In this document: in pieces, positions 9,277 to 60,416 of the stretch
How positions within the stretch are numbered: position 1 is the first letter of the stretch
Layout of the letters: each line of letters begins with the position of its first letter
Origin: a virus
Direction: 5' to 3' (one strand)
DNA: 64,000 nucleotides
IMG/VR virus record: IMGVR_UViG_3300035703_000012
Coordinates: 1-64,000 of that record
Position numbers and translations under genes: made by a program
Notes under the pieces: generated by a model
What the model was told of the DNA's origin: nothing
The model's database searches: none
Seen by the model: only the letters and a program-made list of their open reading frames with translations

Positions 9277-9519
9277 ATGACCCCAGGACCCAACCAAGCT
9301 GCTTACGACGCAGCGTACGCTCGAGTTGCCAAACGGGTATATGACATCTGCGGTCGCGAAGCCGGAGATGCCGAGGTCGACCGCGTGGTCGATACCTACG
9401 GCGTCAACCTGGTCGACGTCTCGGATCGAGACATCTGGGATGCCGCCACCGAAAGGGCGGACTGGCCGCACGAAGACGAACCGGAAGACAGCTGTGAAAG
9501 AGACGAGCCAATCGACTGA
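9277..9519 (+). CDS. hypothetical acidic protein
   Basis: ATG lies 5 nt after GAAGGAGG. 80 aa. Confidence 0.55.
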   Translation: MTPGPNQAAYDAAYARVAKRVYDICGREAGDAEVDRVVDTYGVNLVDVSDRDIWDAATERADWPHEDEPEDSCERDEPID

Positions 9520-9691: not shown

Positions 9692-10046
9692 AGACCCCAC
9701 GCGCTGCCCGGGCTGCGGCAAGCTTTTCAAAGACCTGCACCGGCACCTGAACCACCCTGGCGTGCCTTGCGGCAAACCCTCGAGCGAAAGCCGCTCGCTC
9801 TCGGCCGTGCTGGCCGCCTTGCCCCCAGCGCTGCGGCTCGATGTCGAGGGCTTGCCCCTGGCAACGGCCGACCAGCTGCGGGCCGTGCTGGGGCTGACCT
9901 CCGAGGGGCGTGCGCTGCTGGCCCGGCCCGCCCAGGCCCGGCTCGAAAGCCGGTCTTACCGCACCTACACCCGCTACACGGGCAGCGTCTGGTTCGACAA
10001 CAACCTCGGCCGCGTTTGGGCGGAGGTGCCTGCCCAGTTGCTTTGA
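9681..10046 (+). CDS. hypothetical protein with N-terminal CxxC...HxH zinc-finger-like motif
   Basis: CPGCGKLFKDLHRHLNH. 121 aa. Confidence 0.5.
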   Translation: MSAEDPTRCPGCGKLFKDLHRHLNHPGVPCGKPSSESRSLSAVLAALPPALRLDVEGLPLATADQLRAVLGLTSEGRALLARPAQARLESRSYRTYTRYTGSVWFDNNLGRVWAEVPAQLL

Positions 10047-11571: not shown

Positions 11572-13419
11572 TCAGCGCCAGCTCCACGTCACATTGCGCT
11601 CGCATGACAGCTGCCCGATCAGCCTGATGTCCGAGGCCGCAGCGCCCATCATGCCGCCCTCCACCATGCCCGGCTCGAGGTTGCCCTCCAGCTGGGCGAT
11701 CTGCCAGTTGACCACGGCCACGCAGTCGGCCAGGTCCTTGGAGATCTTGCCGCGTCCCGGCACGGCGCTGTCCTTGTTCTTGGGGTGGGCGATCGACTCG
11801 CCGTTGCGCAGCTCGATGTGCTTGAGCTCCTCGATGAGCGTCGGGTGGTTGGGGATGCGCACCAGCCCCGCGTTCAGCCGCGCCCGCAGCATGTCGTAGA
11901 GCTTCTTCTGAAACGGCCCCGAGAAGTGGAACTCCCGGGTGACGACGTTCTCCCGGAACAGCCGCTGGATGCTGCCCGCCGAGTTCCAGTGGTCGAACGT
12001 CAGCCGCTGCATGTTCCGCTTCTTGGCGATCTCGATGAGCACCTCCTCCACGTTGACGAGGTCCACCGGCGCCACCTTGTTGCGGCCGAGCGGCTTGGGC
12101 ATCCACTCCAGCACCGCGTCGATCACCGTCACGATGCCCACCTCGCTCCACTCTGCATGCCCCACCGCAAAGCCGAAGCTGTCGCGCTTGAGGCCGGGGT
12201 CGCAGTGCCCGATGCTGATGACGTTGCTGTGCGTCAGCGGCGTCACCGCCACCTGCAACCCCGCCATCTCCCGCGTCTCCCCCTGAGACGCCCCCTTGGC
12301 CTCGCCCAGCCCCCGGTTGATGACCTGCGGCTGGTGCGCGATCACCGCCTGGGGGTCCCGCCCGGCTGCCGCCTTCTCGATGACGGCCGGCATGAAGAAC
12401 GACGTGGCCGACCCCGGCCGCAGGTTCTCGTAGTCGCGGGCCGCCGCCACGGGGTCCTTGACGTAGTCGCTGGCGATGCCCGAGTCGTCCTTGGAAAGCG
12501 TCGGGTTGAAGTCGAACGTCGTCAAGTCGAAGACCAGACACCCCTGCCGCTGCCGGTCCCAGTCCTCGCGCACGAGCTGCTCCATGAAGTCGCCCTCGCA
12601 CTTCACGGACGAAAGCGCGATGCGCTTGGCCGCGTCCTTGTAGGTGGCCGTCGACTTGCCCACGCGGGTGTAGACGTCCTGGGCGTTGCTCGTATGCCCC
12701 TCGTCGGCGCTGAACATCGCCAGCTCGTCGAAAGCCACCATCACCGCCGTGCGGCCGACGATGGAGGTCGCTTTGGAGTGGCCGCAGGCGATGATGACGC
12801 CCTTGCTCGCGCACTCGATGTCGAGCTCGCGCACCACGATTTCCCCCTGCTCGATCATGTTCTTGAAGAAGGTGGACTCCGTCACGTACTTCTTCACGTA
12901 GTAGAAGATGGTGCCGAGCACCTGCCGCTCTGTGCTGGCGATGACGGTGATGTAGATGGGCGAGCTCTTGGGCACGCCCAGCTCGTGCTGCGGACACGGG
13001 CTCGTGATGTGCTTGAAGAACTCGTAGACGATCGCGAGCGCCACGGAGCTCGACTTGGCGCTGCGCATGCCGGCCTGGAACGTGATGTTCTGGTAGCTGA
13101 AGCGCGGCTTCTCCGGCTTGCCCTCGAGCACCCGCTGCATGTTGGTCTCCGTCAACAGCTGGCTGGGGTCGCGCCAGTTGGTCTTCTCCGACTGGACCCA
13201 CTGGTCGAGTAAGGCCTGCTCCTCGGCGTTCATCGTGTCGCCGAACATCGTCTTGAGAAACACACGCTGGCTGAGAAACAGCGGCACGTCGAAGGCGTCG
13301 ACAATGGTTTCCACGAACTCCACCGGCCCGAGCTGCCGCGCTGCCGCCTGCACCTTGACCAGCTTCGAGCTGACCTGGTCGAGGATGTTGAGGTTCAGGT
13401 TCTTGGCGGGCGTGCTCAT
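11572..13419 (-). CDS. terL: terminase large subunit
   Basis: Walker A-like QAGMRSAKSS, Walker B VMVAFDELA, and RNaseH-like nuclease half HCDPGLKRDSFGFAVGH...KDLADCV. The ATG at 13419 overlaps the upstream stop (ATGA). Confidence 0.9.
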   Translation of the reverse strand: MSTPAKNLNLNILDQVSSKLVKVQAAARQLGPVEFVETIVDAFDVPLFLSQRVFLKTMFGDTMNAEEQALLDQWVQSEKTNWRDPSQLLTETNMQRVLEGKPEKPRFSYQNITFQAGMRSAKSSSVALAIVYEFFKHITSPCPQHELGVPKSSPIYITVIASTERQVLGTIFYYVKKYVTESTFFKNMIEQGEIVVRELDIECASKGVIIACGHSKATSIVGRTAVMVAFDELAMFSADEGHTSNAQDVYTRVGKSTATYKDAAKRIALSSVKCEGDFMEQLVREDWDRQRQGCLVFDLTTFDFNPTLSKDDSGIASDYVKDPVAAARDYENLRPGSATSFFMPAVIEKAAAGRDPQAVIAHQPQVINRGLGEAKGASQGETREMAGLQVAVTPLTHSNVISIGHCDPGLKRDSFGFAVGHAEWSEVGIVTVIDAVLEWMPKPLGRNKVAPVDLVNVEEVLIEIAKKRNMQRLTFDHWNSAGSIQRLFRENVVTREFHFSGPFQKKLYDMLRARLNAGLVRIPNHPTLIEELKHIELRNGESIAHPKNKDSAVPGRGKISKDLADCVAVVNWQIAQLEGNLEPGMVEGGMMGAAASDIRLIGQLSCERNVTWSWR

Positions 13420-13784
13420 CCGGCGTGCACCAGCATCACCGTGCGCGTCTCGCCTTCCGTGTTGGTGTAGTAGAGGTAGGCGTAGTAGCCGAAGCTGTAG
13501 TCCAGCAAGAATATCCAGTCGACCTCCCCAAAGCCCCACACCGCCTCCGTCAAGCCCGTGGCAGCGCTGTGCGCGCCCAGCAGCGTGAACGTCTCGTCGT
13601 AAAGCTGGTAGCCCGCCTCGAGGTCCAGGTCGGGGAGCTCGAAGAACGGGTCGGAGACCTTCACGAACAGCACGTCGTCGGTGTGGGCCAGGGCCCGGTA
13701 CAGCGTGGGGGCCGGCAGCGCGTCAAGCAGATTGGCATCGCCGACCTGCGCGATCCACTGCGCGAGCACAGGCGTCAGCGTCAT
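13416..13784 (-). CDS. hypothetical acidic protein coupled to terL
   Basis: 122 aa with ATGA overlap with terL. It sits where a small terminase would, but no DNA-binding-like features are visible. Confidence 0.55.
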   Translation of the reverse strand: MTLTPVLAQWIAQVGDANLLDALPAPTLYRALAHTDDVLFVKVSDPFFELPDLDLEAGYQLYDETFTLLGAHSAATGLTEAVWGFGEVDWIFLLDYSFGYYAYLYYTNTEGETRTVMLVHAG

Positions 13785-21617: not shown

Positions 21618-22475
21618 TCAGGAGACGGCTGCGACCGTCCGGGGTGCTTCAAGGGCGAGGGACTTGGCCGCGCCGCCGTCCGCGTAGGGACCGGACAGGC
21701 TTACGGCCAGGTGCGTGAGGTTCTCGACGGCCCCGGCCGAGCCCTCGAACCAGGTGTTGAACGACAGGCTGATGCGCGTGCTGTCCGTCGTCACGGGCGG
21801 CACCATGTGCTCCAGTTCCGACGGGAACAGCACGAGGTCTCCCGCCGCGACGGGAATCCACCAGGAGTCGCTGTTCCAGGGGTTGAACTCGGCCTGCGTG
21901 AACGGCACGCGCTTGTAGCCGCCACGAAAAAACATGATGCGGTCGGTGTCACCGCTAGCCGCCACGTAGTACACCCCGCTGATGAGGCTGCCCGGGTGGG
22001 CGTGCTTGTGATGCCACTGGCCCTGCGTCGTGAAGTTCAGCCACGCCTGGGTCGGCAGGAACTTCACGTCGCCCACCGGGGCGATCGTGGTCTTGACGTA
22101 CTCCGCCAGCGCGGCGTCGATCTCCTCGTACAGCACCACCAGCCCGGGCGCCGCCCCCATCGCCGACAGCGCCGCATGGGCCCACGCCGCCACGTCGTCG
22201 CAGTCCACCGGCAGGCGCGCCGCCGTGCCGGCCTCCAGCGCCGCCTGCAAAACCTCGGGGTGCCAGTAGAAGTCCACCACCCCGTACACCGGATCCCCCG
22301 TGTAGGTGTAGCGGGCCGCCAGGTAGTCCCAGGCGGCATGCGGCGACGTGAACGCCGGCAACGGGCGACGCGGGACGCCCGCGAGCCAGGCGACCAGGCG
22401 CGAGGCCGCGCGCTTGCTGGCGTCCAGCAGCCGCACGGCGGCGGGAACGAACCGACCGAACACCGCCTCCCTCAC
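21618..22475 (-). CDS. fusion of a truncated BTLCP-like N-terminal segment and a 2OG-Fe(II) oxygenase
   Basis: The N-terminus YTYTGDP...VDCDDVAAWAHAAL matches 17395..17997 but lacks its His/Asp part. The C-terminus QAWLNFTTQGQWHHKHAHPG...FPSELEHMV...RISLSFNTWF is paralogous to 22677..23303. The GTG start overlaps the upstream TGA. Confidence 0.65.
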   Translation of the reverse strand: MREAVFGRFVPAAVRLLDASKRAASRLVAWLAGVPRRPLPAFTSPHAAWDYLAARYTYTGDPVYGVVDFYWHPEVLQAALEAGTAARLPVDCDDVAAWAHAALSAMGAAPGLVVLYEEIDAALAEYVKTTIAPVGDVKFLPTQAWLNFTTQGQWHHKHAHPGSLISGVYYVAASGDTDRIMFFRGGYKRVPFTQAEFNPWNSDSWWIPVAAGDLVLFPSELEHMVPPVTTDSTRISLSFNTWFEGSAGAVENLTHLAVSLSGPYADGGAAKSLALEAPRTVAAVS

Positions 22476-22684
22476 GGCAGGCGGTTCAGCGTGAAGGTGG
22501 TGTTCGCGGTGGCAGGGGCCGTGACGCTGGTGACGCTGGTCGCGAGCGACGTGCCGGCAGCGCTGGGGTTGTAGGTGTGCGTGTGCGCGTTGAAGTCCGT
22601 CGCCAGCTCGTTGTAAAGCTCGGCGTGGCGCTGCACGATGGCCTCCAGCCGCAAAAGCCGCATCTTCAGTTCGTGGTTATCCAT
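22472..22684 (-). CDS. hypothetical 70-aa protein
   Basis: Coiled-coil N-terminus and S/T/A-rich tail. It is coupled at both ends. Confidence 0.5.
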   Translation of the reverse strand: MDNHELKMRLLRLEAIVQRHAELYNELATDFNAHTHTYNPSAAGTSLATSVTSVTAPATANTTFTLNRLP

Positions 22685-23303
22685 AGGGCCCTCCCACCTG
22701 ACAGGCCAGGCCCGTCAGGCTGTCCACGCTGCCTGCCTCTCCGTTGAACCACGTGTTGATCGCCAGGCTGATGCGCGTGTGTCCATCCGCCATGTTCGGG
22801 GCCACGTGGTGCTCCAGGTAGCTCGGGAAAATCACGAGGTCCATCGGCCCGACCGGGATCCACCAGCTCGGGCTGTTCCACGGGTTGAAGTCCGCGGCCT
22901 CGAACATCAAGCGATCGTAGCCGGAGCGGTGGAAGTAGATGCGATCCGTCTCCTTGTTGGCCGACACGTACAGGCAGGCCGACAGCCACGAGCACGGGTG
23001 CGCGTGGCGGTGGTGCCACTGGCCCTTCTCGTTGAAGTTCAGCCACGACTGCGTGATGGCGATGCGGGGCTTGGTGACGGGCACGACCACGCCGTCCACG
23101 TAGGCCTGAAGGTGCTCCAGCACCAGCGCCTTGAGGTCCGCGAGCCGGGGGTCGTGCAGCACCAGCCGGTAGGCGCTGGTCTGGTTGCCCTCGTTGGGCT
23201 TCTTCTCGGCCCCCAGTTCCTCGATTGCCGCTCGCTCCTCTGGCGTCAACTCGCGCAGCGTGCGCCGCCCCACGGCGGTCGGAAACAGGTTGATGATTTC
23301 CAC
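22677..23303 (-). CDS. 2OG-Fe(II) oxygenase (small phage/cyanophage-type family)
   Basis: GTG at 23303 lies 5 nt after AGGAG. IINLFPT..., SWLNFNEKGQWHHRHAHP, FPSYLEHHV, RISLAINTWF. Confidence 0.7.
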   Translation of the reverse strand: MEIINLFPTAVGRRTLRELTPEERAAIEELGAEKKPNEGNQTSAYRLVLHDPRLADLKALVLEHLQAYVDGVVVPVTKPRIAITQSWLNFNEKGQWHHRHAHPCSWLSACLYVSANKETDRIYFHRSGYDRLMFEAADFNPWNSPSWWIPVGPMDLVIFPSYLEHHVAPNMADGHTRISLAINTWFNGEAGSVDSLTGLACQVGGPYG

Positions 23304-23320
23304 GATGGCTCCTGTCTGGC

Positions 23321-23899
23321 CTACCAGGCCCACGAGACGAACGAGTAGCGCGTCCCCGCCGTGATCTCCAAGACCTCGTGCGGGTAGAGGAAGCAGGACG
23401 GCCACACCAGCACCTGGCCCGCCTTGAGCGCGTAGGGCTTGCCGCAGAGCACCAGATCGCCACCCTCGTAGCCGTCGTTGAGGTTGCCGACGATGGACAG
23501 CGCCGGGATGCCCTTGGCCTGCCCGTCGAACAGGGTGTGGATGTGGTCGGTATGCGGGCGCATTACGGACCCGACGGGGTAGCGGTTCAGGCGCACGTTG
23601 CTGCACGCCGTCACCTGCGCATGCGCCATCAGCTCTCGGCTGTAGCGCATCACGGCATCGACCACCACATCCGTCAGGGCCTTGAATAGCTCCGGCTGGT
23701 CGTCAACAGGACGAACGTCCAGCTCTTTCTCTGCTTCGCTGTGCGAGTGTTGCGTCGCCGGGTTGTACCACTGGTGCTTGGTCCAGCCCTCCAGCGCTGC
23801 GACAGCGGTCGCCTCGGCGCTCAGGTCATAGTTGTACAGCCGGATGTAGCCGTCCAGGGTCTGCGCGGGCGCTGGCGGCGCCTCAAGCTGCTGGGTCAC
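23321..23899 (-). CDS. prolyl-4-hydroxylase-like 2OG-Fe(II) oxygenase
   Basis: RPHTDH (HxD), YPHEV (distal His) and TRYSFVSW (RxS). Confidence 0.75.
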   Translation of the reverse strand: MTQQLEAPPAPAQTLDGYIRLYNYDLSAEATAVAALEGWTKHQWYNPATQHSHSEAEKELDVRPVDDQPELFKALTDVVVDAVMRYSRELMAHAQVTACSNVRLNRYPVGSVMRPHTDHIHTLFDGQAKGIPALSIVGNLNDGYEGGDLVLCGKPYALKAGQVLVWPSCFLYPHEVLEITAGTRYSFVSWAW

Positions 23900-33294: not shown

Positions 33295-33993
33295 CTACAC
33301 CGTGCCGCGCCAGAACAAGGCGCCATTCAGGCGGTACAGCCCGTTGAACAAGAAGGGCTCGGTCTTGGTGGTGCTGCGCTTGACGGTGATGAGCCGGCCC
33401 TCGGCGTCGAAGGCGTAGCGGCTGGTGTGGGTCTTGTCGGGCTCGATGGCCACGATTTCGCGGATGCGCCCGTTGTCGTCGTAACGGTAGAACTCCTCGC
33501 GCACGATCCAGTCATGAAGCCCTTCGTAGGCCTTGAGCAGCGTGCCTGTGGCGTCGTGCTCGAGCCACACCTGGGGCCGGATGGCCCGCAGCGACACCAC
33601 GCCGGTCTCGTCGCGCAAGACGTAACCGAGCACCGTGAGCGCCGTGGCGGGCACGCGGGTGTGCCACTGCAGCTGACCTTCCGAGCCGGCGCACAGAAAC
33701 AGCACGGCCCCCAAGGAGGCATCCGGCAGAGCCACGGCCTGCGTCGGCCAGGACCACGCCACCCCCGTCGCATCCAGGTGCGTGCCGGCTGTTAGCTGCA
33801 CCGACGCGGCGTCCAGCACCTGCAACGCAAGGCCGCTGCGGCTTTCTGCCGGCCAGTTCCGCAAGGACACGGCGTTGCGCGCGGTCCGCAGCTGGTCCTG
33901 CACCCGGTTGTTGGCCGCGAGCAGCGTGGGGCCGACCCGCGCCACCTTCGGGTTCCAGGCAGGGTTCACAAACGGCACGCCAGCAAGCGGCAT
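33295..33993 (-). CDS. YD-repeat-containing fibre-module protein, paralogue 2
   Basis: FYRYDDNGRI and YAFDAEGRLI. It shares the VQLTAGT N-terminal domain motif with 33993..34739. TGATG coupling. Confidence 0.6.
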   Translation of the reverse strand: MPLAGVPFVNPAWNPKVARVGPTLLAANNRVQDQLRTARNAVSLRNWPAESRSGLALQVLDAASVQLTAGTHLDATGVAWSWPTQAVALPDASLGAVLFLCAGSEGQLQWHTRVPATALTVLGYVLRDETGVVSLRAIRPQVWLEHDATGTLLKAYEGLHDWIVREEFYRYDDNGRIREIVAIEPDKTHTSRYAFDAEGRLITVKRSTTKTEPFLFNGLYRLNGALFWRGTV

Positions 33994-34739
33994 CAGTCGA
34001 ACCCCTGCACAGCGGTCTCTCCGATGCCGAAAAACAGGCTGTCGCCGAGCACCAGCGACAGCGCCCCCACGTACGAGACGCCCACGCGCTCCGGCAAGCC
34101 GCTCGCGTTGTAGGCCCACTCCTTCACCGTGAAGTCGTTTTCCAGGGTCTCGACCGCCAGAATGAGGCGGCCGGCCTGGTCGTAGATGTAGTACTGGGCC
34201 TTGAGCATGCGCGCCCCGTTCGAGAACTCGACGCTCTCGAGCTGCCCCTGGGCGTTGTAGTTGCAGGTCTCGACGAAGACCTCCAGGTCGAAGACCAGCT
34301 CGCTGCCATCCTCGTTGAGCTCGCAGGTGCCAAGCAGCACCAGGGCGTCTTCGGGCAGGCTCGTGCTGATGTCGACCGTGTAGTTGGCCGCCAGGTACAG
34401 GTAGTTGGTGACGCCCTCATGGGGAATGTAAGCCAGCTCGCCCGGGTCGTACTCGACCACCATGCCTTCCGGCGTCACCACCGTGCCCGCCGTCAGCTGG
34501 ATGACGGGCGGGTTTTGGCCGATGGGCTTGAAGCCGAACACCAGCAGCCGGCCATTCAGCAGCGCCTTGAGGCCCGCGCGCTGGTCGTCCCGCAAACCGG
34601 TGAACCCCGCGTTGAGGTTCTCCAGCGTGGCAGGGATGGTGCTCGCCACCGTGTGGGGCGTGTAGGTGAAGAAGCGGCCGGGGATGGTCACGCCTCCAGT
34701 TTCTGCAACCGGAGGGGGCACATTCTGGGAAAGTTGCAT
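33993..34739 (-). CDS. YD-repeat-containing fibre-module protein, paralogue 1
   Basis: YYIYDQAGRLI and IQLTAGT. 248 aa. Confidence 0.6.
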   Translation of the reverse strand: MQLSQNVPPPVAETGGVTIPGRFFTYTPHTVASTIPATLENLNAGFTGLRDDQRAGLKALLNGRLLVFGFKPIGQNPPVIQLTAGTVVTPEGMVVEYDPGELAYIPHEGVTNYLYLAANYTVDISTSLPEDALVLLGTCELNEDGSELVFDLEVFVETCNYNAQGQLESVEFSNGARMLKAQYYIYDQAGRLILAVETLENDFTVKEWAYNASGLPERVGVSYVGALSLVLGDSLFFGIGETAVQGFD

Positions 34740-34755
34740 GGCTGCAAGGCGCCCA

Positions 34756-34764
34756 TGCTATGAT
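34756..34764 (+). promoter_or_regulatory. extended -10 element TGCTATGAT
   Basis: It lies in the 56-bp divergent gap, with TTGCAT 19 nt upstream. This placement would favour the ATG at 34796 as the ATPase start. Confidence 0.35.
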
Positions 34765-34795
34765 CACCGATCGGAGCCCGTTTCCTGAGGTTGTC

Positions 34796-35611
34796 ATGCA
34801 GATGCTGGACGTTCCCGCGCTCGACCAGCCTTTTTCCACCACCCCGAGCCCGCGCTACTTCTACCTGGCCGAGCAGTACCGCGAGGCCCTGAACCACGCC
34901 ATCAGCACCGTGATGCAGCGCGACGGCCTGGGCATCCTGGCGGGCCCCATCGGCTGCGGCAAGAGCACGCTGCTGCGCTACCTGGTCGACTGGCTCAACG
35001 ACGCCCTGCTCGACCGAATGCAGCTCGGCATCATCTACAACCCGAGCGTGAGCACGGACTTCCAGCTGCTCAAGGCCATCTGCAAGGAGTTCGACCTGCC
35101 GCCCAAGCCCCGCAAGGACGAGCAGCTCGAAGCCCTGCGCGAGCACCTGGCGGCCCAGGAGCAGGCCGGCAAGGTGGTGGTGCTGCTCATCGACGAGGCC
35201 CACAAGCTGAACGGGCCGCAGCTCGAGCTGGTGCGGGAGTTCTTCAACTTCGCGCACAACGACCGCTTCTACATGCAGGTGATCCTGGCGGGCGAGACCC
35301 AGCCGCTGAAGCACAAGCTCAAAAACAAGCAGGCCATTCTCTCGCGGGCCATGTACTACTACGACCTCGAGCCGCTGACGCTGGCGGACACCCGGGAGCT
35401 GATCCGCTTCCGCCTCAAGGTCGCCGAGCTTCCGACCGATTGGTTCACGGACGGGGCCATCGCGACGGTGCACCATGTGACCAAGGGCGTGCCGCGCAGC
35501 ATCGTCAAGCTGTGCCGGCACGCCTACGATCTCGCCAAGCCGGGCGAGGCCATCGACGTCGACCAGGTGGAGCACGTCGCACGCAAGGGAAAGGCGGTTT
35601 TTGGTGGGTAA
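34796..35611 (+). CDS. AAA+ ATPase, ExeA/GspA-TniB-MuB-like
   Basis: Walker A GPIGCGKST (34943-34969) and Walker B VVVLLIDEAHKL. An alternative ATG lies at 34760. It overlaps the next gene by 11 nt. Confidence 0.8.
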   Translation: MQMLDVPALDQPFSTTPSPRYFYLAEQYREALNHAISTVMQRDGLGILAGPIGCGKSTLLRYLVDWLNDALLDRMQLGIIYNPSVSTDFQLLKAICKEFDLPPKPRKDEQLEALREHLAAQEQAGKVVVLLIDEAHKLNGPQLELVREFFNFAHNDRFYMQVILAGETQPLKHKLKNKQAILSRAMYYYDLEPLTLADTRELIRFRLKVAELPTDWFTDGAIATVHHVTKGVPRSIVKLCRHAYDLAKPGEAIDVDQVEHVARKGKAVFGG

Positions 35612-36476
35612 CCTCGACTACCTGTCGAACGCCAAGCGCATCCGCGAGCAGACCCTCGAGCTCAAGCGGGCGCAGTTCGCCGAGGAGGTCGAGGCCAGCT
35701 TTCAGATCAAGCTGGAGCTCATCGACCCCAACCCCTACCAGCCGCGGGTGGACTTCTCGGCCGTCGAGCGCATGGCCGAGAGCCTGCGCGAGCACGGGCA
35801 GTACTACCCCATCCTCGTGCGCCGCGTGGCGGATCGCTACCAGGTCGCCGACGGCGAGACGCGCCTGCGGGCCGCCAAGCTGAACGCGGCCCAGCACCCC
35901 GACAGTCCCGCCACCATCGCCGCGGTGCTCAAGCCTTACAACAATGTCGACATGGCCGTCATCGCCTTCCGCACGGCCTACGACCGCAAGGAGCTCAACC
36001 CCGTGGAGGAGGCCCGCGGGCTGCGCCGGCTGCATGACGAGCTGCGCATCGAGTACCGCGAGATCGCACGCCGGCTGGGCCGGCCGGAGAGCTACATCTA
36101 CGACCGGACCCGCCTGCTGGGGCTCAACCCGCTGCTCAGCGCGGCCATCGAGCAAGACGCTCTGAGCGCGAGTGCCGCCATCAAGCTGCAGGCGCTGGGG
36201 CTGGAGTCCGACGAGGAGCTGGCGCGCGCGATCGCCCTGGTGCGCGAGGAGCGCATGACGGTCCAGACCATCCAGGCCCAACGCGCTCGCCTGCTGCAGG
36301 CCGCCAAGACCCAGGAGCCGGTCGACAGCGCTGCGCCCGACGCCAGTCAGACCCTGTGGCGGGATCTTCGCACCATCTGGAAGCACCTCGACCCGGCGGC
36401 CCAGAAGCGGCTGGTCGAGACGGCCTCCCAGCTCGCGGCCACCCGGCTCAGCGGAAGTACTCCGGCGGAAGCTTGA
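35601..36476 (+). CDS. ParB/Srx-like N-terminal domain protein with HTH
   Basis: LELIDPNPYQPR, PILV, ADGETRLRAA (about 35850-35876) and HTH EIARRLGRPESYIYDRTRLL. Confidence 0.8.
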   Translation: MVGNLDYLSNAKRIREQTLELKRAQFAEEVEASFQIKLELIDPNPYQPRVDFSAVERMAESLREHGQYYPILVRRVADRYQVADGETRLRAAKLNAAQHPDSPATIAAVLKPYNNVDMAVIAFRTAYDRKELNPVEEARGLRRLHDELRIEYREIARRLGRPESYIYDRTRLLGLNPLLSAAIEQDALSASAAIKLQALGLESDEELARAIALVREERMTVQTIQAQRARLLQAAKTQEPVDSAAPDASQTLWRDLRTIWKHLDPAAQKRLVETASQLAATRLSGSTPAEA

Positions 36477-36648
36477 GGCGAATCTCCGCAGGCAGCGCCG
36501 CCAGCAGCGCCTGCATCTTGGCTTCGAGCTCCGTCAGACGGGCGTCGTCCGTCGCGGGCGGGGGCATGAAGACCAGACCGCCCGTTTCGGGGCAGCGGTA
36601 GTAACCTTCCACGGGCTGAACCTCAGGCGTTGAGGATGCACACGACAT
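36448..36648 (-). CDS. hypothetical 66-aa protein
   Basis: Convergent with the ParB-like gene and overlapping its 3' end by 29 nt. Confidence 0.45.
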   Translation of the reverse strand: MSCASSTPEVQPVEGYYRCPETGGLVFMPPPATDDARLTELEAKMQALLAALPAEIRLKLPPEYFR

Positions 36649-38120: not shown

Positions 38121-41100
38121 TCAAACGTCCCGCGACGTGGCCGTAACTCCCGGTGGCAGCCCTTGCAGCGTGACCGTGGCGCCGTCCGTCACCGTGGCGG
38201 CGATTTCCACGGGCTGAGTGCCCGTGGTGCGAATCTCTGCTGGCAGCTGGATGATATTTGCACTGACCCGGTCCACGCTTGTGTTGTTCACCTTCAAGTC
38301 AATCCGAGCTGCCGTGACGCTGTCCCGGTTCTTCAGCACGACGGTGAACTGCAGCGGGACCTTGACGGTGGTGAGACCCGCTCCACTGATGGTGATGCGG
38401 CGCTCCGTCGCATCGGTTGCCACTTCACGCCACTGGACCGTGAACTTGTTGGTCACGTCCGGCCCCTGCAGGACGCCGTCTCGGTCGTAGGTCAGGTAGC
38501 CGTTGTTGGGGGCAAGCGGGATGTTGACGCCACTGACGTGCGCCACGTGCACCTGCACCTGGCCGGGCACGCCCACCGTGCCGTTGCTGACGACGGGCAG
38601 CTTGAAGTGCACGTCAAGCTCGATGTTGGCGGTGTCCGTCGTCAGGTTGGCGAGCTGGAGGTTGCCGTCCGGCAGCAGCGTCCGGGTGGTGGGGCTGGTC
38701 ACGTGGTAGAGCTTGAGGGGTGCTGTCTGCACGAACTGCGGCGCGTACTGCTTATTGGGGCTTTCGATCAGGCGCGCGAGCTGCGCGAGCTCGGCCGTGT
38801 TCTCCACGATGCCGATCAGCGCGGCAGCCTTGTAAGGGGCCTGGGCCGCCAGGTTCTTGTCTGTGAAAAGCACGCGGGCCTCCACGGCGACGGTGCCGGA
38901 GGTGATGCCTTCCGGGATGTAGAACTCGACATCGAAGCGCCCCTCGGCCGAGGCCTGCACCAGGTAGGACGCGGGGTAAGCCACGACCTTGGTCTTGTTG
39001 AGCAGCTCGACCTCGGTTTTGTCGGCCTCCACCGCACGGGTGCCGTCCATGTCGCAGATGAACCCGTGCCCGGCGGCCCCCTTGATGCCCTTGATCAGCG
39101 GCCGGCGGCCGTCGACGCGCAGCTCGACGAAGCTGAACGCCGGAAAGCCCGAGCCGTGAGCACCGTTGAGCGTCGGGGCCATGGTGGCGGGGATGCCCCG
39201 GCTCGCCGCACCCGACGTTTTGAACGCGGTGGCGTAGCGGTTGCGATCCTCGGTGTAGGCCTGCCAGTCATACTCGTAGTTCTGGATGAGCTTGCGGAAG
39301 TTCTCGCTGGCGCCGCTGCTGATGGTGAGGTCTGTGTTCTCGACCGCACCGTTGTCGGCATCCAGCGTCAGGCTGGGGCCTGCCACGTACTCGTCGAACT
39401 GGTTGACCTGCAGCGCCCCTGTGGCGAGCTGCTGGCCAAGGTCGCCCAGCTCGACCTCGCGGGCCCGGCTGAGCGTCAGAAGCTTCTCGCCGCCGGCGAG
39501 CTTCTTGGCCTCGGCGCTGAGCGTGGCAAGCGTAAGGGTGTACTGCGCCCCGGGCGCTGTGCCCGTCGGCGGGTGGTAGGTGTGCGCCGTCATCGGCAAG
39601 GTGAAGCGCTGCCCGATAAGATCCAGGCTGCGCTCGGAGCTGGAGGCCTCGTCGAACCGCAGCTCGCGCCGGGCGAGGTTGTCGACGGTGTAGATGAAGC
39701 TCTCCGTGACGATGCCCCGCAGCGCGGCGCTGTTGCCGGCCCGCTGGATGGCCTGGTTGTTGAGGTCGTTGACGGCCGCGTTGTACTCGGCCCGGTTGAG
39801 CCGCTCGACCAGCTCGCGCAGCTCGAGCATGGTCAGACGCTTCACGTTGTAGGCCGTGACCGTCGTCCCGGCGTGGCCCTGCCCGGCCTTCACCAGCAGC
39901 GAGCCCAGCGCCAGCACGTCCGGGAGCACCGGCGGGGCGATGGGCTTCTCCGCGCTCTGGCCGAGCGCGAGCCGGAGCTCGCCCGCGCCGTCGAGGTAGA
40001 CGACGTCGAGCCGGTTGAGGTGGTAGCGGTACTCCACACGAAGCTCGGAGCCCGGGGTGCTGCCGTCCGTCTTGTTCCGAAAGAAGGGCTTTTGCGCCCC
40101 GGCGTTGGTGAGGAAGTAGGTCAGGTCCAGGTAGTGCTCGCCGCTCTCGCTGGTGTAGAGTGCGAACTCGGCCAGCTCCAGCTTGCGCTGGTAGCGCAGG
40201 TAGACGTGGTACACGTCGTTGGCCGCCGGCTCGCTGAGGTAAACCTCCTGCCAGTACTCCGCGTCGATGGTGCCCGCCAGGTCCTTGACGGGCGGCTTGT
40301 TGGCGTGGGCCTTGCGGGCGCGCCAGTAACGGTTCTCGCCGTCGCGCTGCAGGTACTGGACGACAGCCCCCTTCTCGTAGGTGACAGCCGACTCCCAGGC
40401 AAGGGCTTCGCTGCTCGGAATCGGGTTCCAGTACAGCCGCGTGCCCTGCAGGTAGTAAGCCCCCAGCCCGACGTTGCTGACGGCGTTGAGGTAGACCTTT
40501 TCCGGATTCTCGATGGCCGCATCCGACGTGTCGCCCGCCGTGAAGACCTGCAGAATCTCGGCCAGGCTCTCGTCTTGGCCCAGGGGAATCTCGTCGAAGC
40601 CGTTCAGGCTGTGGCCCGTGACCGTCACGACCTTGTCGAAGTAGGCGTAGACCGCGTCGATCGCCGCCACCGGCTGCTTGAACAGCAAGAAGCGGTGGCT
40701 GGCCAGGCTGTTGTCCTGCGTGACGGCGTAACGGTGGTAGGTGTCGATGGCCTCGTCCGTGTCCAGCGCCTTGGGCACGTCGAGGTACTCGGGCACCAGC
40801 TTGAGGATCTGGTTGCCTTGGACGTAGGCCGTGGAGCCAGCGCGGTTGGCGTCGTTGCGGTTGTTGACCTTGAGCCGGAAGCTCGTGCTGTCGGGGTCGC
40901 TGGCGGCCTCCACCGCAAGGTCGAAGCCGTTGACGACGTAGTTGCCGCTCTCGTCGTAGGTGCGCCGGGCCAGCGTGCGCGTCACCGGGTCGAGCTGACC
41001 CACGGCCACGGCGAGCTGCTGCTGCCGGTCGAGGAAGGTGTAGACGGGGATGAAGCCCGCCTCCGGCGTGGCGTCGGTGCGCATCTCCCAGGCGGCCGTG

Positions 41101-41531
41101 ACGCGCAGCCGGTTGGCACCCGGCTGGCCGTAGTTGAGCTCCTCGACCGCCGGGTCCAGCAGCGCCGGGTCCTGGTCAGCCGTGACGAGCGCCTCCGTCA
41201 GCCGCACGCCCACGTAGGCGTAGCCCGTGGCGGGCAGCGCCAGGGTGGCGGCCGGCACGTGGTGAATCAGGCCCGAGGCGTAGAAGGAGATGCCCTTCAT
41301 GGCGAGCGTGGCGCCGTCCACGCTCTGGCTGAAGGTGCCGTCCTCGGCCTTGACGATGCTGCCTTCCTTGAAGAGCACGTCCGTCAGCGTCTGGTGGATG
41401 CTGCGGCTGATGGCCTGCAGCTCGTTAAACTCCTGCGACTGCGGCGGGTAGCCCGCGCGCGCCCGCACCTCGACGTAGCGCTTGGCGGCGTCGAACTGGT
41501 TGTAGTAGCCTTCCTCGGCGGGGATGGTCAT
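38121..41531 (-). CDS. large baseplate-distal structural protein
   Basis: 1136 aa. Contains YEKGAVVQYL...YWRARKAH...PP......YWQEV (CBM5/12-like). Confidence 0.65.
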   Translation of the reverse strand: MTIPAEEGYYNQFDAAKRYVEVRARAGYPPQSQEFNELQAISRSIHQTLTDVLFKEGSIVKAEDGTFSQSVDGATLAMKGISFYASGLIHHVPAATLALPATGYAYVGVRLTEALVTADQDPALLDPAVEELNYGQPGANRLRVTAAWEMRTDATPEAGFIPVYTFLDRQQQLAVAVGQLDPVTRTLARRTYDESGNYVVNGFDLAVEAASDPDSTSFRLKVNNRNDANRAGSTAYVQGNQILKLVPEYLDVPKALDTDEAIDTYHRYAVTQDNSLASHRFLLFKQPVAAIDAVYAYFDKVVTVTGHSLNGFDEIPLGQDESLAEILQVFTAGDTSDAAIENPEKVYLNAVSNVGLGAYYLQGTRLYWNPIPSSEALAWESAVTYEKGAVVQYLQRDGENRYWRARKAHANKPPVKDLAGTIDAEYWQEVYLSEPAANDVYHVYLRYQRKLELAEFALYTSESGEHYLDLTYFLTNAGAQKPFFRNKTDGSTPGSELRVEYRYHLNRLDVVYLDGAGELRLALGQSAEKPIAPPVLPDVLALGSLLVKAGQGHAGTTVTAYNVKRLTMLELRELVERLNRAEYNAAVNDLNNQAIQRAGNSAALRGIVTESFIYTVDNLARRELRFDEASSSERSLDLIGQRFTLPMTAHTYHPPTGTAPGAQYTLTLATLSAEAKKLAGGEKLLTLSRAREVELGDLGQQLATGALQVNQFDEYVAGPSLTLDADNGAVENTDLTISSGASENFRKLIQNYEYDWQAYTEDRNRYATAFKTSGAASRGIPATMAPTLNGAHGSGFPAFSFVELRVDGRRPLIKGIKGAAGHGFICDMDGTRAVEADKTEVELLNKTKVVAYPASYLVQASAEGRFDVEFYIPEGITSGTVAVEARVLFTDKNLAAQAPYKAAALIGIVENTAELAQLARLIESPNKQYAPQFVQTAPLKLYHVTSPTTRTLLPDGNLQLANLTTDTANIELDVHFKLPVVSNGTVGVPGQVQVHVAHVSGVNIPLAPNNGYLTYDRDGVLQGPDVTNKFTVQWREVATDATERRITISGAGLTTVKVPLQFTVVLKNRDSVTAARIDLKVNNTSVDRVSANIIQLPAEIRTTGTQPVEIAATVTDGATVTLQGLPPGVTATSRDV

Positions 41532-52458: not shown

Positions 52459-54282
52459 TTAAGCCAGCCGGATGCTGGCACGCAGCACGCGGTTGATGTT
52501 GAACTGGGTCTTGTCGTTCGGGTACAGCGGCTCGATGAAGATGTCGACGTAGCGCTGACCGGACGCCCGGACCGCCGGCGGGTTGTTGGAGTCGTTCGAG
52601 ACCGTGGGGTCGTAGCCCGCCAGCTGGCGGTTGGCCACCCGGTTGCCCAGGTAGGCGTCGATGCCCTGCTGGATGGTGGCATCCAGCGCCGCGTTGCTCG
52701 GCTCGGACTTGGTGAACTGGAAGTTGAAGAAGATGTCCGTGCGGATGGTGTCGTAGATGCGCCGCACGCAGTTCCAGTACCAGGCCGGGTCGCTGGCCGT
52801 CGTGCGGCCATTCAGGCAGTGGAACGCGCCCGAGACGGGGTCCGCGATGAGGGCCTCGCAGCGGTAGCGCGTGATGTCGTTCCAGGCGCTGACGGTGGCC
52901 GGGGTGTCGAGCTCGGTGATGCCCTTGATGGTGGGCGAGCTGGTGCGGGCCGCCGTGGAGATGTGCGCCGGCGTCACGACGCAGTGGCCGGCGTAGAGGG
53001 CCGCCGGATCCACCGAGAAGCGGCGCGCTTTGGTCTGGCGGGCGCTGGAGCCCCAGCCCACCACCATGACCGTGCGCTGCGAGTCGGGGATGCGGGAGGC
53101 CGCCCGCAGGCCCGGCAGGTCCGCCTGGGTGGTGCCGCGCGGCGCGGAGAGGATGGCCTGGCGCAGGCCCACCATCTCGCCCATCTCGGCATCGCCCGCC
53201 TCGGCCTGGGCGACCAGCGTGGCGTTGAGCGCCCACTGGTCGACGCCGTCGGGCTTGAGGCCCGGGCAGATGATAAAGGTGGCCTGGATGGCCTTGTAGG
53301 CGTCGATGGCGCGGATGAAGTCCTCGGTCGTGAGCGTGGGGTCGCCGTCGTGGCCGCCCGTGAAGCTGAAGACGCCTTCCGTGAACTCCTGGCCGGCCTC
53401 GTCGAGGACCACACCCCGGGCGAGCATGGAGGAGCGCAGCGGCGCGAACTTGTCCTCGTCGTAGACGTCAGCCAGCGAGAGCTCCGAGAAGGTCTCGGTG
53501 ATGCCGCGCTCGGCGTTGGTGAGGATCAAGGAGAACTTGTCGGCGTCGAGCGAGCGCACGACCTCGACCTTGGTGTTGCCGTTGGCGGCCGTGCCGGGCG
53601 AGAGCTCGACCAGGCGCAGCACGTCGGTGAGCACACCGCCGACCTTGGCCTGGAGGGTGACCTGGGCCGACTGGGGCGCATCGAAGCCGCCTTCCAGCTC
53701 GGCGTCGGCCGGCACCGTCAGGCCCGTGTGGCCCGAGACCGAGAGGCCCACCACGATGTCGTTGCCGGCATCACCCGCCTCGGCGGCGGTGAAGACGATG
53801 CTGCCCGTCGTGCCGGAAGCGGTGCCCACGGCCGCCGTGAAGGGCAGACCGTCGGTGTCGGCGACGAGGGCCACCAGGTCTGCGACGATCTCGCTGGCTG
53901 TCTTGCCCGTGAAGTCGGTGTCCGAGACCAGGGTCGTGGCGACGCCGCCCGCGACCGCGTACTCGACGCCGATGCTGCCGTCCCCCGCGGCGGTGCCGAC
54001 GAGCTGCAACGTGACCTTGGCCTTGCGGGCGGCGGGCAGCACGCGCGAGATCAAGATGTCGTTGACGCCCTGGTCGAGCACGGCCTGCATGTGCACGGAG
54101 CCCACGGAGGTGTCGGCCCCGAAGAGCTTCAGGGCGTCGTTGGCGTCCGCCACCGTCACGCCCGCGGGCCCGTAGCGGAACACCCCGGCCAGCGCCACCC
54201 GATCGACGGTGGCCGGCCGCACGGGCCGAGGGCCCACGTTGCCCTCGAAGAAGCTGAAGCTGGGGAACAGCTGGAAAGCCAT
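52459..54282 (-). CDS. tail sheath protein
   Basis: 607 aa. The C-terminal conserved half contains VGWG...SVDPAALYAGH...AWNDITRYRCEALI...NGRT....PAWYWNCVRRIYD. Confidence 0.9.
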   Translation of the reverse strand: MAFQLFPSFSFFEGNVGPRPVRPATVDRVALAGVFRYGPAGVTVADANDALKLFGADTSVGSVHMQAVLDQGVNDILISRVLPAARKAKVTLQLVGTAAGDGSIGVEYAVAGGVATTLVSDTDFTGKTASEIVADLVALVADTDGLPFTAAVGTASGTTGSIVFTAAEAGDAGNDIVVGLSVSGHTGLTVPADAELEGGFDAPQSAQVTLQAKVGGVLTDVLRLVELSPGTAANGNTKVEVVRSLDADKFSLILTNAERGITETFSELSLADVYDEDKFAPLRSSMLARGVVLDEAGQEFTEGVFSFTGGHDGDPTLTTEDFIRAIDAYKAIQATFIICPGLKPDGVDQWALNATLVAQAEAGDAEMGEMVGLRQAILSAPRGTTQADLPGLRAASRIPDSQRTVMVVGWGSSARQTKARRFSVDPAALYAGHCVVTPAHISTAARTSSPTIKGITELDTPATVSAWNDITRYRCEALIADPVSGAFHCLNGRTTASDPAWYWNCVRRIYDTIRTDIFFNFQFTKSEPSNAALDATIQQGIDAYLGNRVANRQLAGYDPTVSNDSNNPPAVRASGQRYVDIFIEPLYPNDKTQFNINRVLRASIRLA

Positions 54283-57906: not shown

Positions 57907-59052
57907 CTAGACGATGTACTTGGAGCCGAGCACGCCCGTCAGGTCGGCCTTGTCGCAGGCGGTGACGAGGTGCACCCACCAGGGCTTGTACAGCACCGGC
58001 AGGCCCGACATGCCGACCTGCATCGTGAGGCCGGGGGGCAGGGTGGGATCGAGGAGGTTGTCCTCACGGACCTCGCCCGTGCGGACGAAGATGCCCGTGC
58101 CGCCCTGGAGGCCGTTCGGATGCTCGCCGCGGGTGACCACGGAGTAGCCGAGGCGCTGGGTGGGCAGCGAGGGGTGGCGCGCCGCGAAGAAGGCGATCTT
58201 GTTCACGGGCCACATGAACTGGCGCGTGAGGTTGCCCGCGACGTAGTCGTCCATCAGCATCTTGTGCACGACGAACTTCACGCCCGCGATCGTGTCGACC
58301 TTGCCGTCCGGACCCCAGGTGACCAAGCCGGTCGAGTACAGGCCGCTGGTGTTCCCGGGCAGGAACTGGCGGACCTGGGCGTTGCGGCTGATCATCTCGA
58401 GCATGGCCGCGCCGACCACCGCGTGGGTGGGGGCGTTCTTGCCTTCGAGCGTCATCATGTAGACGAGGCGCTGCACGTCATCGACGATCTTGGCGTTGGC
58501 GACGTCGTGCCACTTGGTGGAGCCGGCCATGGCGCCCGCGCCGATGGTGTAGAGGTTGCCAGCAGGGATGCCGGAGTTGGCGACGATGGAGACGCCCGAC
58601 TCCTGGTCCTGGTAGTTGATGCCGCCCGACATCAGCTGGGCGCGCAGCATCGCCATCATCAGGTTGGCCTGGTCGATGAGGTTCATGAGCCGGTTCTGGA
58701 CGAGGTCCATGCCGTACTCCTTCTGCATCTGGCCGGGCTGACGCAGGTGGTTGATGATCTCCATGTCGATGAAGTCACCGCGGCGGAAGTGGGCCGGCTT
58801 GAAGGTGAACTCCTTGGCCTTGGCGAAGGTGTTCAGCTTGTTGGGCATGCCGGGCTTGACCACGCCCATCAGGCGCAGCTCTTCTTCCGTCCACTCCACG
58901 CGCACGTCCTTCTCCTGGACGGCACGCTGGGGCAGGAACTCGACCAGCGGGTCCACCGACTGGATCTGCTGGATTTCCAGCGCGAACTCCGTCAGGTAGG
59001 TGTGGCCGAGCTCCAGGATGCCAAACGGCGGGGTGTAGTTGGTCAGACTCAT
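57907..59052 (-). CDS. major capsid protein (HK97-fold, gpE-like)
   Basis: 381 aa, positioned after the protease/scaffold gene. The composition and length are typical of a major capsid protein. Confidence 0.8.
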   Translation of the reverse strand: MSLTNYTPPFGILELGHTYLTEFALEIQQIQSVDPLVEFLPQRAVQEKDVRVEWTEEELRLMGVVKPGMPNKLNTFAKAKEFTFKPAHFRRGDFIDMEIINHLRQPGQMQKEYGMDLVQNRLMNLIDQANLMMAMLRAQLMSGGINYQDQESGVSIVANSGIPAGNLYTIGAGAMAGSTKWHDVANAKIVDDVQRLVYMMTLEGKNAPTHAVVGAAMLEMISRNAQVRQFLPGNTSGLYSTGLVTWGPDGKVDTIAGVKFVVHKMLMDDYVAGNLTRQFMWPVNKIAFFAARHPSLPTQRLGYSVVTRGEHPNGLQGGTGIFVRTGEVREDNLLDPTLPPGLTMQVGMSGLPVLYKPWWVHLVTACDKADLTGVLGSKYIV

Positions 59053-59087: not shown

Positions 59088-60416
59088 CTACTTAGCAGCG
59101 GCCTGGGCCTTGAGGCCTTCGGTCCGCTTCAACCAGGGGTTAACGGAAAGGGGTTCGGTGACTTCCACCGTGCCGGCCTGCTCGAAGCTGACCTTGCCCG
59201 GGTGATCCGCCAGCAGCTCGAAGACGGCGTCGACGAGGCTCACTTGCTTGTCCGAGAGCATCAGGGTGTCGGCCTGACGGTGCAGGGCCTGGATGAGCTG
59301 CGAGGCCTTCTCGGCGGCGGCCGGGGGCACGCCCTGCGACACGACGGCCTTGACGCGATCCGAGAGCATCAGCGCGAACTCGCGCTCCTTGTAGGCCTGC
59401 TCCAGCTTCTGGGCCTCGGCGGCCTTCTCGGCCAGCGCGTCTTGCGCGGCCTTGAGCGCGGCTTCGGCGGCCATCAGCTTGGCCTGCAGCTCGGCGTCGG
59501 CCTCGGCGGCCTCTTCCAGTTCCTCTTCTTGCGCCTCGGCCTCGGGGGCCTCGGGCGTCTGCGGCTCCGCTTCCGGGGCCGGGGCCTCGGGCTGCTCGGC
59601 GTACTGCTCCTCGGCCGCGGGGGCCTCGGGCGCGGGCTGTGCGGCTTCGGGGGCCTCTGCCTCCGGCTGCTTCATCGGTTCGTCGGACATCTGGGCAGGC
59701 TCTCCTTGCTTCGACAGCACGTTCTCGATGCGCTGCATGAACTGCGCGAGCTGGTTCAGCGTGCGAACCAGCATGTTGGGCTGCTCCTCGGCCTCGGGGG
59801 CGGGCATCTCGGCCAGCTGCTCCGGCTCGGCCAGCTGCTCCGGCTCGGGCGTCTCGTCGGCCGCGGCCGGCGGAGGCGCTTGCAGGTCTTCGGGGTCCTT
59901 CATCATGGCAAGGGTTTCCAGCTCGATGGGGAACGCCAGCGGCTCGAGGTCGTCGCTCAGGCTAATTGCCAAGTTATCCGCTTGCACCACGAGGTTTCTG
60001 GGCAACCAGGGCACGGACGGCGCGTTGGTCAGGGCCACGCCCAGCAGCAGCCGACCGAGCGGGGCGTTGGTCTCGCGATCGCGGGCGTTCTTCAAGAACT
60101 CGGCCGAGCTGTAGCGGTAGTGTCCCTGCGCGATCTCATCGAGCACCTCGGCCGTGATGGGCTTGAAGTAGCCCCAGAGGATCTCGCCTTCCTGCTCCAT
60201 GTGCACGCAGTAGGCCAGCGCGCGCTCGCCCTGGAACACGCCCGGCCCGCGCTCGTGGTGGCCGTAGCGCACGTAGGGCTCGTAACCCCGGGCGTTGCGC
60301 TCGAAGTTGCGCTGGATGTCGTCGAGGTCCGCCTGGCTGAAGCTGATGACGCCCAGGGTTTCGTGAAACCAGGAGCCGCGCTTCGCCACCGGAAGCTTGA
60401 GGAGCTTGCTGAGCAT
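59088..60416 (-). CDS. Mu-I-like prohead protease fused to acidic scaffold
   Basis: N-terminus YVRYGHHERG...GVALTNAPSVP, then a low-complexity E/A/P-rich segment and a coiled coil. Confidence 0.65.
   Translation of the reverse strand: MLSKLLKLPVAKRGSWFHETLGVISFSQADLDDIQRNFERNARGYEPYVRYGHHERGPGVFQGERALAYCVHMEQEGEILWGYFKPITAEVLDEIAQGHYRYSSAEFLKNARDRETNAPLGRLLLGVALTNAPSVPWLPRNLVVQADNLAISLSDDLEPLAFPIELETLAMMKDPEDLQAPPPAAADETPEPEQLAEPEQLAEMPAPEAEEQPNMLVRTLNQLAQFMQRIENVLSKQGEPAQMSDEPMKQPEAEAPEAAQPAPEAPAAEEQYAEQPEAPAPEAEPQTPEAPEAEAQEEELEEAAEADAELQAKLMAAEAALKAAQDALAEKAAEAQKLEQAYKEREFALMLSDRVKAVVSQGVPPAAAEKASQLIQALHRQADTLMLSDKQVSLVDAVFELLADHPGKVSFEQAGTVEVTEPLSVNPWLKRTEGLKAQAAAK
59808..59843. repeat. 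perfect 18-bp tandem duplication in the scaffold linker
   Basis: CTCGGCCAGCTGCTCCGG x2, encoding PEQLAEPEQLAE. Confidence 0.85.

Follow-up and report, generated by a model that had tools for sequence, protein, structure and literature searches.

The DNA analysed here is a stretch of 64,000 nt and 67% GC, positions 1 to 64,000 of the IMG/VR virus record IMGVR_UViG_3300035703_000012, and is referred to as the window. The subject of the analysis is a pair of plus strand genes within it, which encode an ExeA/GspA-family AAA+ ATPase (AAA_22) of 271 amino acids (34796..35611) and a deviant ParB of 290 amino acids (35604..36476). A myovirus late region on the minus strand fills the rest of the window around the pair, and a separate plus strand block of other genes is located at 1–8 kb. 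The reality of genes was judged by their codon-position GC pattern; third-position GC was 0.89 in the open reading frame (ORF) of the ATPase and 0.90 in that of ParB, matching the true genes of the window. Between 11.5 and 64 kb no further plus strand ORF was backed by annotation or by homologous loci, as had been proposed in the first-pass annotation of this DNA, which described the pair as the only plus strand genes in ∼53 kb of minus strand late genes. Both proteins come from known families; the combination of a ParB with an ExeA/GspA-type AAA+ ATPase in place of ParA is, as far as could be found, previously undescribed.

The two ORFs as opened span 34760..35611 and 35601..36476, and the start of each was reassigned. 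For the ATPase the second methionine, the ATG at 34796, was preferred to starts at 34740 or 34760, because the homologues are all ∼271 amino acids in length and because a GAGG Shine-Dalgarno sequence (34787..34790, plus strand) lies 5 nt upstream; AGAGG is conserved in L026 and L027, two of the related loci listed below. The ParB ORF additionally opens at an upstream TTG (35601), and the GTG at 35604 is its most likely start, giving a product of 290 amino acids, the same length as the 100% identical database protein P0034. Counted from this GTG, the reading frames overlap by 8 nt, as in eight of the nine related loci. The first-pass view that the two genes form one unit was sustained; its overlap of 11 nt appears to be an ORF-calling artefact of the upstream TTG. 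The pair is a real unit, probably with translational coupling.

The ATPase gene diverges from a minus strand gene at 33993..34739 across the 56-bp gap previously reported, as counted from the ATG at 34796. This gap carries a putative extended −10 promoter element, TGCTATGAT (34756–34764, plus strand), inside the block CCCATGCTATGATC at 34752..34765. By alignment, CCCATGCTATGATC is the sole conserved non-coding block upstream of the pair; the window, L026 and L027 share it without change, whereas the intergenic bases on either side vary. A simple sigma-70 scan gave no full −35/−10 pair, and the block is probably a promoter of the extended −10 type, a call made from sequence. Its conservation suggests that the pair is expressed by the host RNA polymerase, independently of the late genes. 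A terminator was searched for downstream of parB and none was found.

Judged by its sequence, the ATPase is a member of the ExeA/GspA branch of AAA_22. The Pfam domain AAA_22 (PF13401) was matched with an E value of 3.4e-22 (79.6 bits against a cut-off of 27). The Walker A motif GPIGCGKST is encoded at 34943–34969 and the Walker B motif LLIDEAH at 35183–35203 (both plus strand); these, a candidate arginine finger (R184) and a G-x-P-R sensor 2 motif (G231-x-P233-R234) are invariant across the clade alignments. The AAA_22 call and its two Walker motifs were already in the first-pass annotation, as was the view that this is not a ParA-type deviant Walker ATPase, and both proved correct. The best NCBIfam model was TIGR03015, the XrtA/PEP-CTERM-associated ATPase (E = 4e-36), at 124.7 bits and below the equivalog cut-off of 324.5. 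Identity to genuine GspA proteins of type II secretion systems was ∼35%, as opposed to ∼26% to phage MuB-type proteins, and the TniB domain (PF05621) scored 19.8 bits, under its cut-off of 22.4. From the earlier description "ExeA/TniB/MuB-like", only the ExeA part was retained.

The next relatives of the ATPase (∼35%) are genuine GspA genes within type II secretion operons; other relatives are GspA/GspB pairs and exopolysaccharide-locus ATPases situated beside Wzz and tyrosine-kinase genes. The phage protein shares with the ExeA/GspA and XrtA/PEP-CTERM ATPases this level of identity, the N-terminal motif PF..P.PR.FY (PF..P.PRYFY), the Walker and sensor motifs and the overlap with a downstream partner gene. 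Unlike the cellular members, which have GspB, TPR or Wzz-type envelope partners in secretion or exopolysaccharide loci, it has a DNA-binding partner and carries neither a C-terminal extension nor a peptidoglycan-binding domain. No GspB accompanies the ATPase of this clade.

The ATPase clade comprises ∼18 clusters at 90% identity, which span 43–100% identity and all originate from metagenome assemblies. An exhaustive hidden Markov model scan of 1.84 billion representatives recovered only about five 50%-identity representatives of the clade above 300 bits, below which lay a continuum of 26,152 ExeA-family proteins. One clade member of 609 amino acids, P0263, has its Walker A loop interrupted by an intein (GPIG-[C...HN]-CGKSS), which suggests that the gene is not dispensable. 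Separately, an intein with a LAGLIDADG domain was observed in a 1117-amino acid MJ0330_N (terminase-like) gene of one paired locus (L034:2830-6183).

The structure searches proposed in the first-pass annotation were run on both proteins. The AlphaFold2 model of the ATPase (predicted local distance difference test, pLDDT, 89.9) consists of a bare AAA+ core and lid, and its best PDB matches by Foldseek were ORC/Cdc6 (2e-10), the MuB-DNA filament 8xvb (5e-9, TMt 0.68) and TnsC (TMq 0.70), proteins which load on double-stranded DNA. A role as a MuB/TniB-type transposition helper, whose transposase has been lost or lies at a distance, would accommodate the MuB filament among these matches, the PHROGs match to the MuB-type family PHROG 296, "DNA transposition protein" (5e-25), and the ∼26% identity shared with B proteins from transposable phages of Pseudomonas (Casadabanvirus). 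Among cultured phages nothing closer was obtained than these B proteins, which have a transposase adjacent. The pair has in common with the MuB, TnsC and TniB target-DNA selectors the initiator-clade AAA+ fold, small size and a sequence-specific DNA-binding partner; in those systems ATP hydrolysis is stimulated by the partner, and this patterns the ATPase on DNA. It differs from them in its low sequence similarity, the lack of an N-terminal DNA-binding domain and the identity of the partner, a ParB. The first-pass annotation had seen no DDE transposase next to the pair, and in neither the 64-kb window nor the nine loci was one detected; TniB is below threshold and the sequence is nearer to GspA, and with a large terminase and a recombinase the layout of the phage is not Mu-like. 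The transposition-helper reading is close to refuted and was considered very improbable indeed.

The second gene encodes, in order, an N-terminal helix, a ParB N-domain, an HTH_ParB domain with its helix-turn-helix (HTH) and a C-terminal helical hairpin. Pfam matched ParB_N (PF02195) at 2.6e-12 and HTH_ParB (PF17762) at 5.7e-13, in keeping with the ParB N-terminal boxes and HTH recognized previously. The protein scored 81.8 bits against TIGR00180, above the cut-off of 58.45, and matched Spo0J (1vz0) at 5e-20. Its AlphaFold2 model (pLDDT 90.4) was matched by Foldseek to Noc, ParB and KorB. The clade to which it belongs is phage-only, with ∼20 clusters, and its next relatives are chromosomal Spo0J-type ParBs at 30–38% identity.

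Several conserved features of ParB are replaced throughout the clade. In the alignment, all 13 clade members have G-E-(T/S)-R in place of GERR (the GETR box of the window lies at 35853–35864, plus strand), and all 13 have (T/S)-A-Y-x-R-K in place of ENLQRE, with loss of the E-N of box III. The replaced positions are exactly the equivalents of R103, E135 and N136 of Caulobacter ParB, in which R103A and N136A abolish binding of cytidine triphosphate (CTP) and E135A abolishes its hydrolysis (PMC8367383). The equivalents of Q58, R60, E102, R104 and R139 are retained, and the CTP pocket therefore appears to be remodelled and not destroyed. As ParB folds are able to bind ATP or GTP (PMC12704722), use of another nucleotide by the clade ParB is possible. 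The ParA-contact motif (L/F/I)G(K/R)G(L/F/I), as defined in the same work (PMC12704722), was not found in the clade, whereas the chromosomal ParBs aligned with it have the motif. The C-terminal dimerisation domain PF23552 is likewise listed for the chromosomal matches and occurs in none of the clade members, the model showing a helical hairpin at residues 248–284 in its place. GETRLRAA had been noted earlier as the substitute for GERR, and this stands; the scope assigned to the change was too narrow, as E-N, the ParA-contact motif and the canonical C-terminal domain are lost as well.

The clade has also gained an N-terminal helix of its own (N.DYLSNA..IR), in which L8 and R15 are invariant in the nine paired sequences. 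By alignment the recognition helix, PESYIYDRTR, differs from those of chromosomal ParB and Noc at the specificity positions, which we take to be those of Jalal 2020. This difference bears on a possible role in host takeover, in which ParB would bind host DNA or the host segregation/condensin machinery early in infection, with the ATPase as motor. The chromosomal Spo0J-type affinity of ParB speaks for such a role, and a host-type promoter would permit early expression; set against these are the divergent recognition helix and the lost ParA-contact motif, and host takeover was regarded as improbable.

ParB-like proteins without a CTP switch have precedents. ParT of the Streptomyces plasmid SCP2 is a CTP-independent ParB-like protein (PMC12260392), similar to the window ParB in this respect and unlike it in that ParT still works with a ParA. 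The phage ParBs which activate 5mYOX enzymes also belong to the ParB family without the switch, and have no HTH and lie beside a TET/JBP dioxygenase (PMC13229309). A link to the latter was rejected: the window ParB has an HTH and no TET/JBP neighbour, and the oxygenases of the window are not of the TET/JBP type.

Nine sequenced loci carry the pair (the window, L001, L002, L003, L026, L027, L033, L034 and L035), and with four contig-matched pairs the sample amounts to 13, all from metagenomic phages. The co-occurrence search suggested by the first-pass annotation gave a uniform result, in that ParB directly follows the ATPase in 9/9 sequenced loci and 4/4 contig-matched pairs. Pairwise identities of the ATPase and ParB are correlated (r = 0.91, 78 genome pairs). 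The AAA_22 genes that are more distantly related, among them cellular, plasmid-borne and viral ones, had no ParB gene beside them. No ParA is present among the annotated genes of the window, and none is listed in any of the nine paired loci. A nucleotide search of cultured phages gave no match, no close relatives of the pair were found in GTDB genomes or IMG/VR, and no publication was found which describes the pairing of a ParB with an ExeA-type AAA+ protein. Had close relatives carried a MuB/ParB pair that is routinely annotated and of known role, the first-pass claim would have failed; no cultured or annotated relative was found to carry the pair.

The position of the pair is conserved. In the window, L001, L026, L027 and L033 it forms a plus strand island at the boundary between the fibre genes and DUF4815, while in L003, L034 and L035 the plus strand island is divergent from a holin/lysis-terminase block; the exception is L002, where the pair lies among small plus strand genes and not between minus strand late blocks. 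This synteny extends down to 45% ATPase identity and is not the patchy spread of a moron. The pair was earlier described as splitting the tail-fibre module, a description which we would withdraw, since it is a conserved backbone feature of the phage group and not an insertion. Syntenic placement over 45–100% ATPase identity suggests a backbone function.

These observations are pertinent to a defence or superinfection-exclusion moron, expressed from the prophage, which would sense or block incoming foreign DNA. An antisense island with its own host-type promoter is typical of morons, and ParB-fold sensors and ATPases are known in Menshen and related systems (PMC12065111). The syntenic placement and the co-divergence with the phage backbone, instead of a patchy distribution, argue against a moron, as does the Walker A intein in one member; in addition, ParB had no match in PADLOC and the ATPase only four, all of them marginal P-loop hits (best E = 1.7e-4, 19 bits), and no effector gene (nuclease or toxin) accompanies the pair in any locus. 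A direct link to Menshen or another known defence system was rejected, Menshen being composed of a ParB-DUF262 protein, an ABC ATPase and an effector (PMC12065111), which is a different architecture. A defence function was considered distinctly unlikely, and the data shift weight from such a moron to a function in the DNA biology of the phage itself.

With the exception of L002, the pair lies at the junction of two late blocks and faces both, a location that would suit a late-transcription regulator resembling KorB, VirB or Noc. In such a scheme ParB would load near the junction, spread, and silence or insulate the late blocks, and the AAA+ protein would load or evict ParB. The Sop system of N15 facilitates late gene expression. 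KorB, for its part, is reported to repress as a sliding clamp together with a partner protein (PMC11790492), and KorB and Noc match the ParB model no less well than ParB does. The KorB-KorA system of RK2 and Noc resemble the window protein further in combining a ParB N-domain and HTH with a non-ParA partner or a non-segregation role; they differ in keeping a functional CTP pocket and in having no AAA+ ATPase as a partner. Around the genes that flank the pair in the window no sites resembling operators were found, the degenerate CTP pocket speaks against canonical clamp sliding, and an AAA+ partner has no precedent in regulators of this kind. A role of the pair in late transcription is unlikely, on balance.

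The ORC/Cdc6 initiators and loaders which head the structural matches of the ATPase introduce a further explanation, that the pair is an accessory of replication initiation or packaging, in which ParB would mark an origin, or a site like pac, and the AAA+ protein of the initiator clade would act as loader. According to the models the ATPase has no DNA-binding domain of its own, and ParB could supply one; in the holin-type loci the pair is 3–4 kb from a terminase-like gene. By sequence, however, the ATPase is ExeA/GspA and not DnaC, DnaA or Cdc6, none of the loci has a helicase or polymerase gene beside the pair, and the terminase of the window is 21 kb away, a distance which had been given correctly in the first-pass annotation. 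This explanation was rated decidedly improbable.

The closest working analogy for the pair would be ParA-ParB; MuA-MuB and TnsB-TnsC are mechanistically similar and would also fit. Like type Ia ParABS systems (P1 ParA/ParB, F SopA/SopB, Soj/Spo0J), the pair is an operon of a nucleoside triphosphatase (NTPase) and a centromere-binding protein, with the NTPase gene first, the ParB gene translationally coupled, a ParB N-domain and HTH, and carriage on a mobile element. Unlike them, its NTPase is an ExeA/GspA AAA+ protein and not a deviant-Walker ParA, and its genes lie inside late structural operons. Three residues of the CTP pocket are missing from its ParB (two for binding and one for hydrolysis), together with the peptide that contacts ParA and the canonical C-terminal domain, and no parS could be identified in the window.

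In the mechanism which we infer, the two genes would constitute one translationally coupled module with the DNA of the phage itself as its target. As the site-specific anchor, ParB would bind this DNA by its HTH and dimerise through the clade-specific C-terminal hairpin. The ExeA-type AAA+ protein would supply the nucleotide-driven step, ParB having lost the CTP-switch residues and the ParA-contact peptide, and would, when bound to ATP, form an assembly, probably on DNA in the manner of the structurally similar MuB, TnsC and ORC/Cdc6. The N-terminal helix of ParB, with its conserved basic R15, may contact the ATPase and trigger turnover. The outcome would be analogous to that of ParA-ParB, with expression from the module's own host-type promoter and independent of the surrounding late operons. 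A reading of ParB as anchor and the ATPase as engine fits the loss of the ParA peptide, the loss of the CTP-switch residues and the gain of clade-specific termini together. That the module positions, segregates or maintains copies of the phage genome is the interpretation we tentatively favour, at somewhat under an even chance.

Several observations weigh against this interpretation. Partition cassettes of known phage-plasmids sit with replication genes and not inside late operons. The nearest cultured relatives of the phage are large lytic-type cyanomyoviruses of 160–180 kb (Ma-LMM01, MaMV-DC and a Microcoleus phage), to which terminase and capsid are only 31% and 26% identical, and the phage lineage is therefore essentially uncharacterised. 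The sole gene of a lysogeny or resolution type seen in the window is an XerC/D-like recombinase; this and the lytic type of the relatives weaken a role in partition of a plasmid-prophage. The closest sequence relatives of the ATPase serve the cell envelope, with GspB, TPR or Wzz partners, so that DNA binding by the ATPase is proposed solely from similarity at the level of fold. Nor was a binding site for ParB found in the window. It has no canonical parS, with one match at three mismatches against 1.76 expected, and searches of the window for repeated, perfect and near-palindromes and for local repeats gave nothing above chance.

Candidate sites were obtained from two other loci. In L001, one copy of CTGTGTCGACACAG precedes the operon by 84 bp and another, with one mismatch (CTGTGTCGACACAG/A), lies 8.8 kb away (the two sites being at 9917–9930 and 1121–1134). 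In L002, the 14-bp palindrome TTGTGACATCACAA occurs on both sides of the operon (9383–9396 and 11623–11636). The shared form TGTGW-NN-WCACA is present twice in each of L001 and L002, where 0.10 and 0.01 occurrences are expected, and these 14-bp palindromes are candidate ParB sites on sequence grounds. The form is absent from the window, a further point against a genome-positioning role there, and likewise from L003, L026, L027 and L033; L034 and L035 have TGTG(N2-6)CACA matches of other forms, at the level of chance. The recognition helices differ, and the site of the window ParB is therefore probably of a different form from that in L001 and L002. One candidate in the window, the inverted repeat CAGCTT-N7-AAGCTG in the 5′ end of parB, was rejected, as it is explained by the codons for S-F...K-L and is not conserved in L001.

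An observation which touches the partner of the ATPase was made on a plasmid-like contig, L031 (JGI 3300037422). At L031:10001-11732 an AAA_22 ATPase of 41% identity is overlapped by a gene of 100 amino acids, whose product has a disordered tail and matches the ribbon-helix-helix type weakly (Antitox_RHH, E = 4e-4, below the Pfam cut-off), and a gene of 195 amino acids with weak winged-helix matches follows. The contig also carries its own ParA operon, toxin-antitoxin modules and ArdC. Owing to the weak E value and the separate ParA operon, the ribbon-helix-helix partner is kept as a hint only.

A broader form of the genome-positioning interpretation may also be stated. In this form the pair would represent a new class of segregation or positioning system, in which an initiator-clade ExeA/GspA AAA+ protein stands in for ParA and for ParB's CTP switch alike, phage genomes are patterned or moved as this protein assembles on DNA with ATP and is triggered by ParB to disassemble, and the ATPase and ribbon-helix-helix-like protein of L031 are a "type Ib-like" counterpart. 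This was thought possible and on the doubtful side.

ParB is the founding CTP-dependent molecular switch, and to our knowledge all segregation-type ParBs characterised so far have a ParA ATPase as their partner. The ParB described here, full-length and with its HTH, shorn of the ParA-contact peptide and of key residues of the CTP pocket, is evolutionarily locked to an AAA+ ATPase, from a family (ExeA/GspA) whose molecular role is poorly understood even in type II secretion. Should both proteins act together on DNA, the pair would add a third kind of NTPase engine for ParB-type complexes, provide the ExeA/GspA family with a tractable, soluble two-protein model and represent a new strategy of maintenance or organisation in phage biology. 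Even as a regulator or as a device for exclusion, the pair would widen the range of uses known for the ParB fold.

The genes which border the pair have no family match. The left-border gene (33993..34739, minus strand, 248 amino acids), from which the ATPase diverges, is 62–70% identical in L026 and L027. Its 3′ end is overlapped by ∼127 nt by the 5′ end of a minus strand ORF at 33295..34119 with a weak RHS-repeat match; this overlap results from calling the first possible start, and the start of 33295..34119 is probably placed too far upstream. On the right, the 3′ end of a small convergent gene (36448..36648, minus strand, 53–66 amino acids) overlaps the 3′ end of parB by 29 nt, as the first-pass annotation had it. 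An ORF is kept at this place in L001, L026, L027 and L033, five genomes with the window, and its product contains CPETGG(L/M)(V/I)F in the window, L026 and L027 and CPKTKGLVF in L001, the motif not being recognisable in L033. This small gene is noted as a neighbour of the pair and is not counted as part of the system.

The late genes of the window, all on the minus strand, include the large terminase (11572–13539), the fibres (∼24–33 kb), the DUF4815/phrog_877 protein (38121–41531), the sheath (52459–54282), the major capsid (57907–59052), a protease-like gene (59088–60416) and the portal (60833–62524), as well as a holin-like gene. The XerC/D-type tyrosine recombinase of 292 amino acids (62508–63386, minus strand), which has a SAM-like N-domain and a catalytic domain, adjoins the portal. 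Three tandem 2-oxoglutarate-Fe(II) oxygenases (2OG-FeII_Oxy_5, Oxy_5 and Oxy_3; 21618–23899, minus strand) are located between the lysis and fibre genes, 11–14 kb from the pair, and might be protein hydroxylases which act on fibre proteins.

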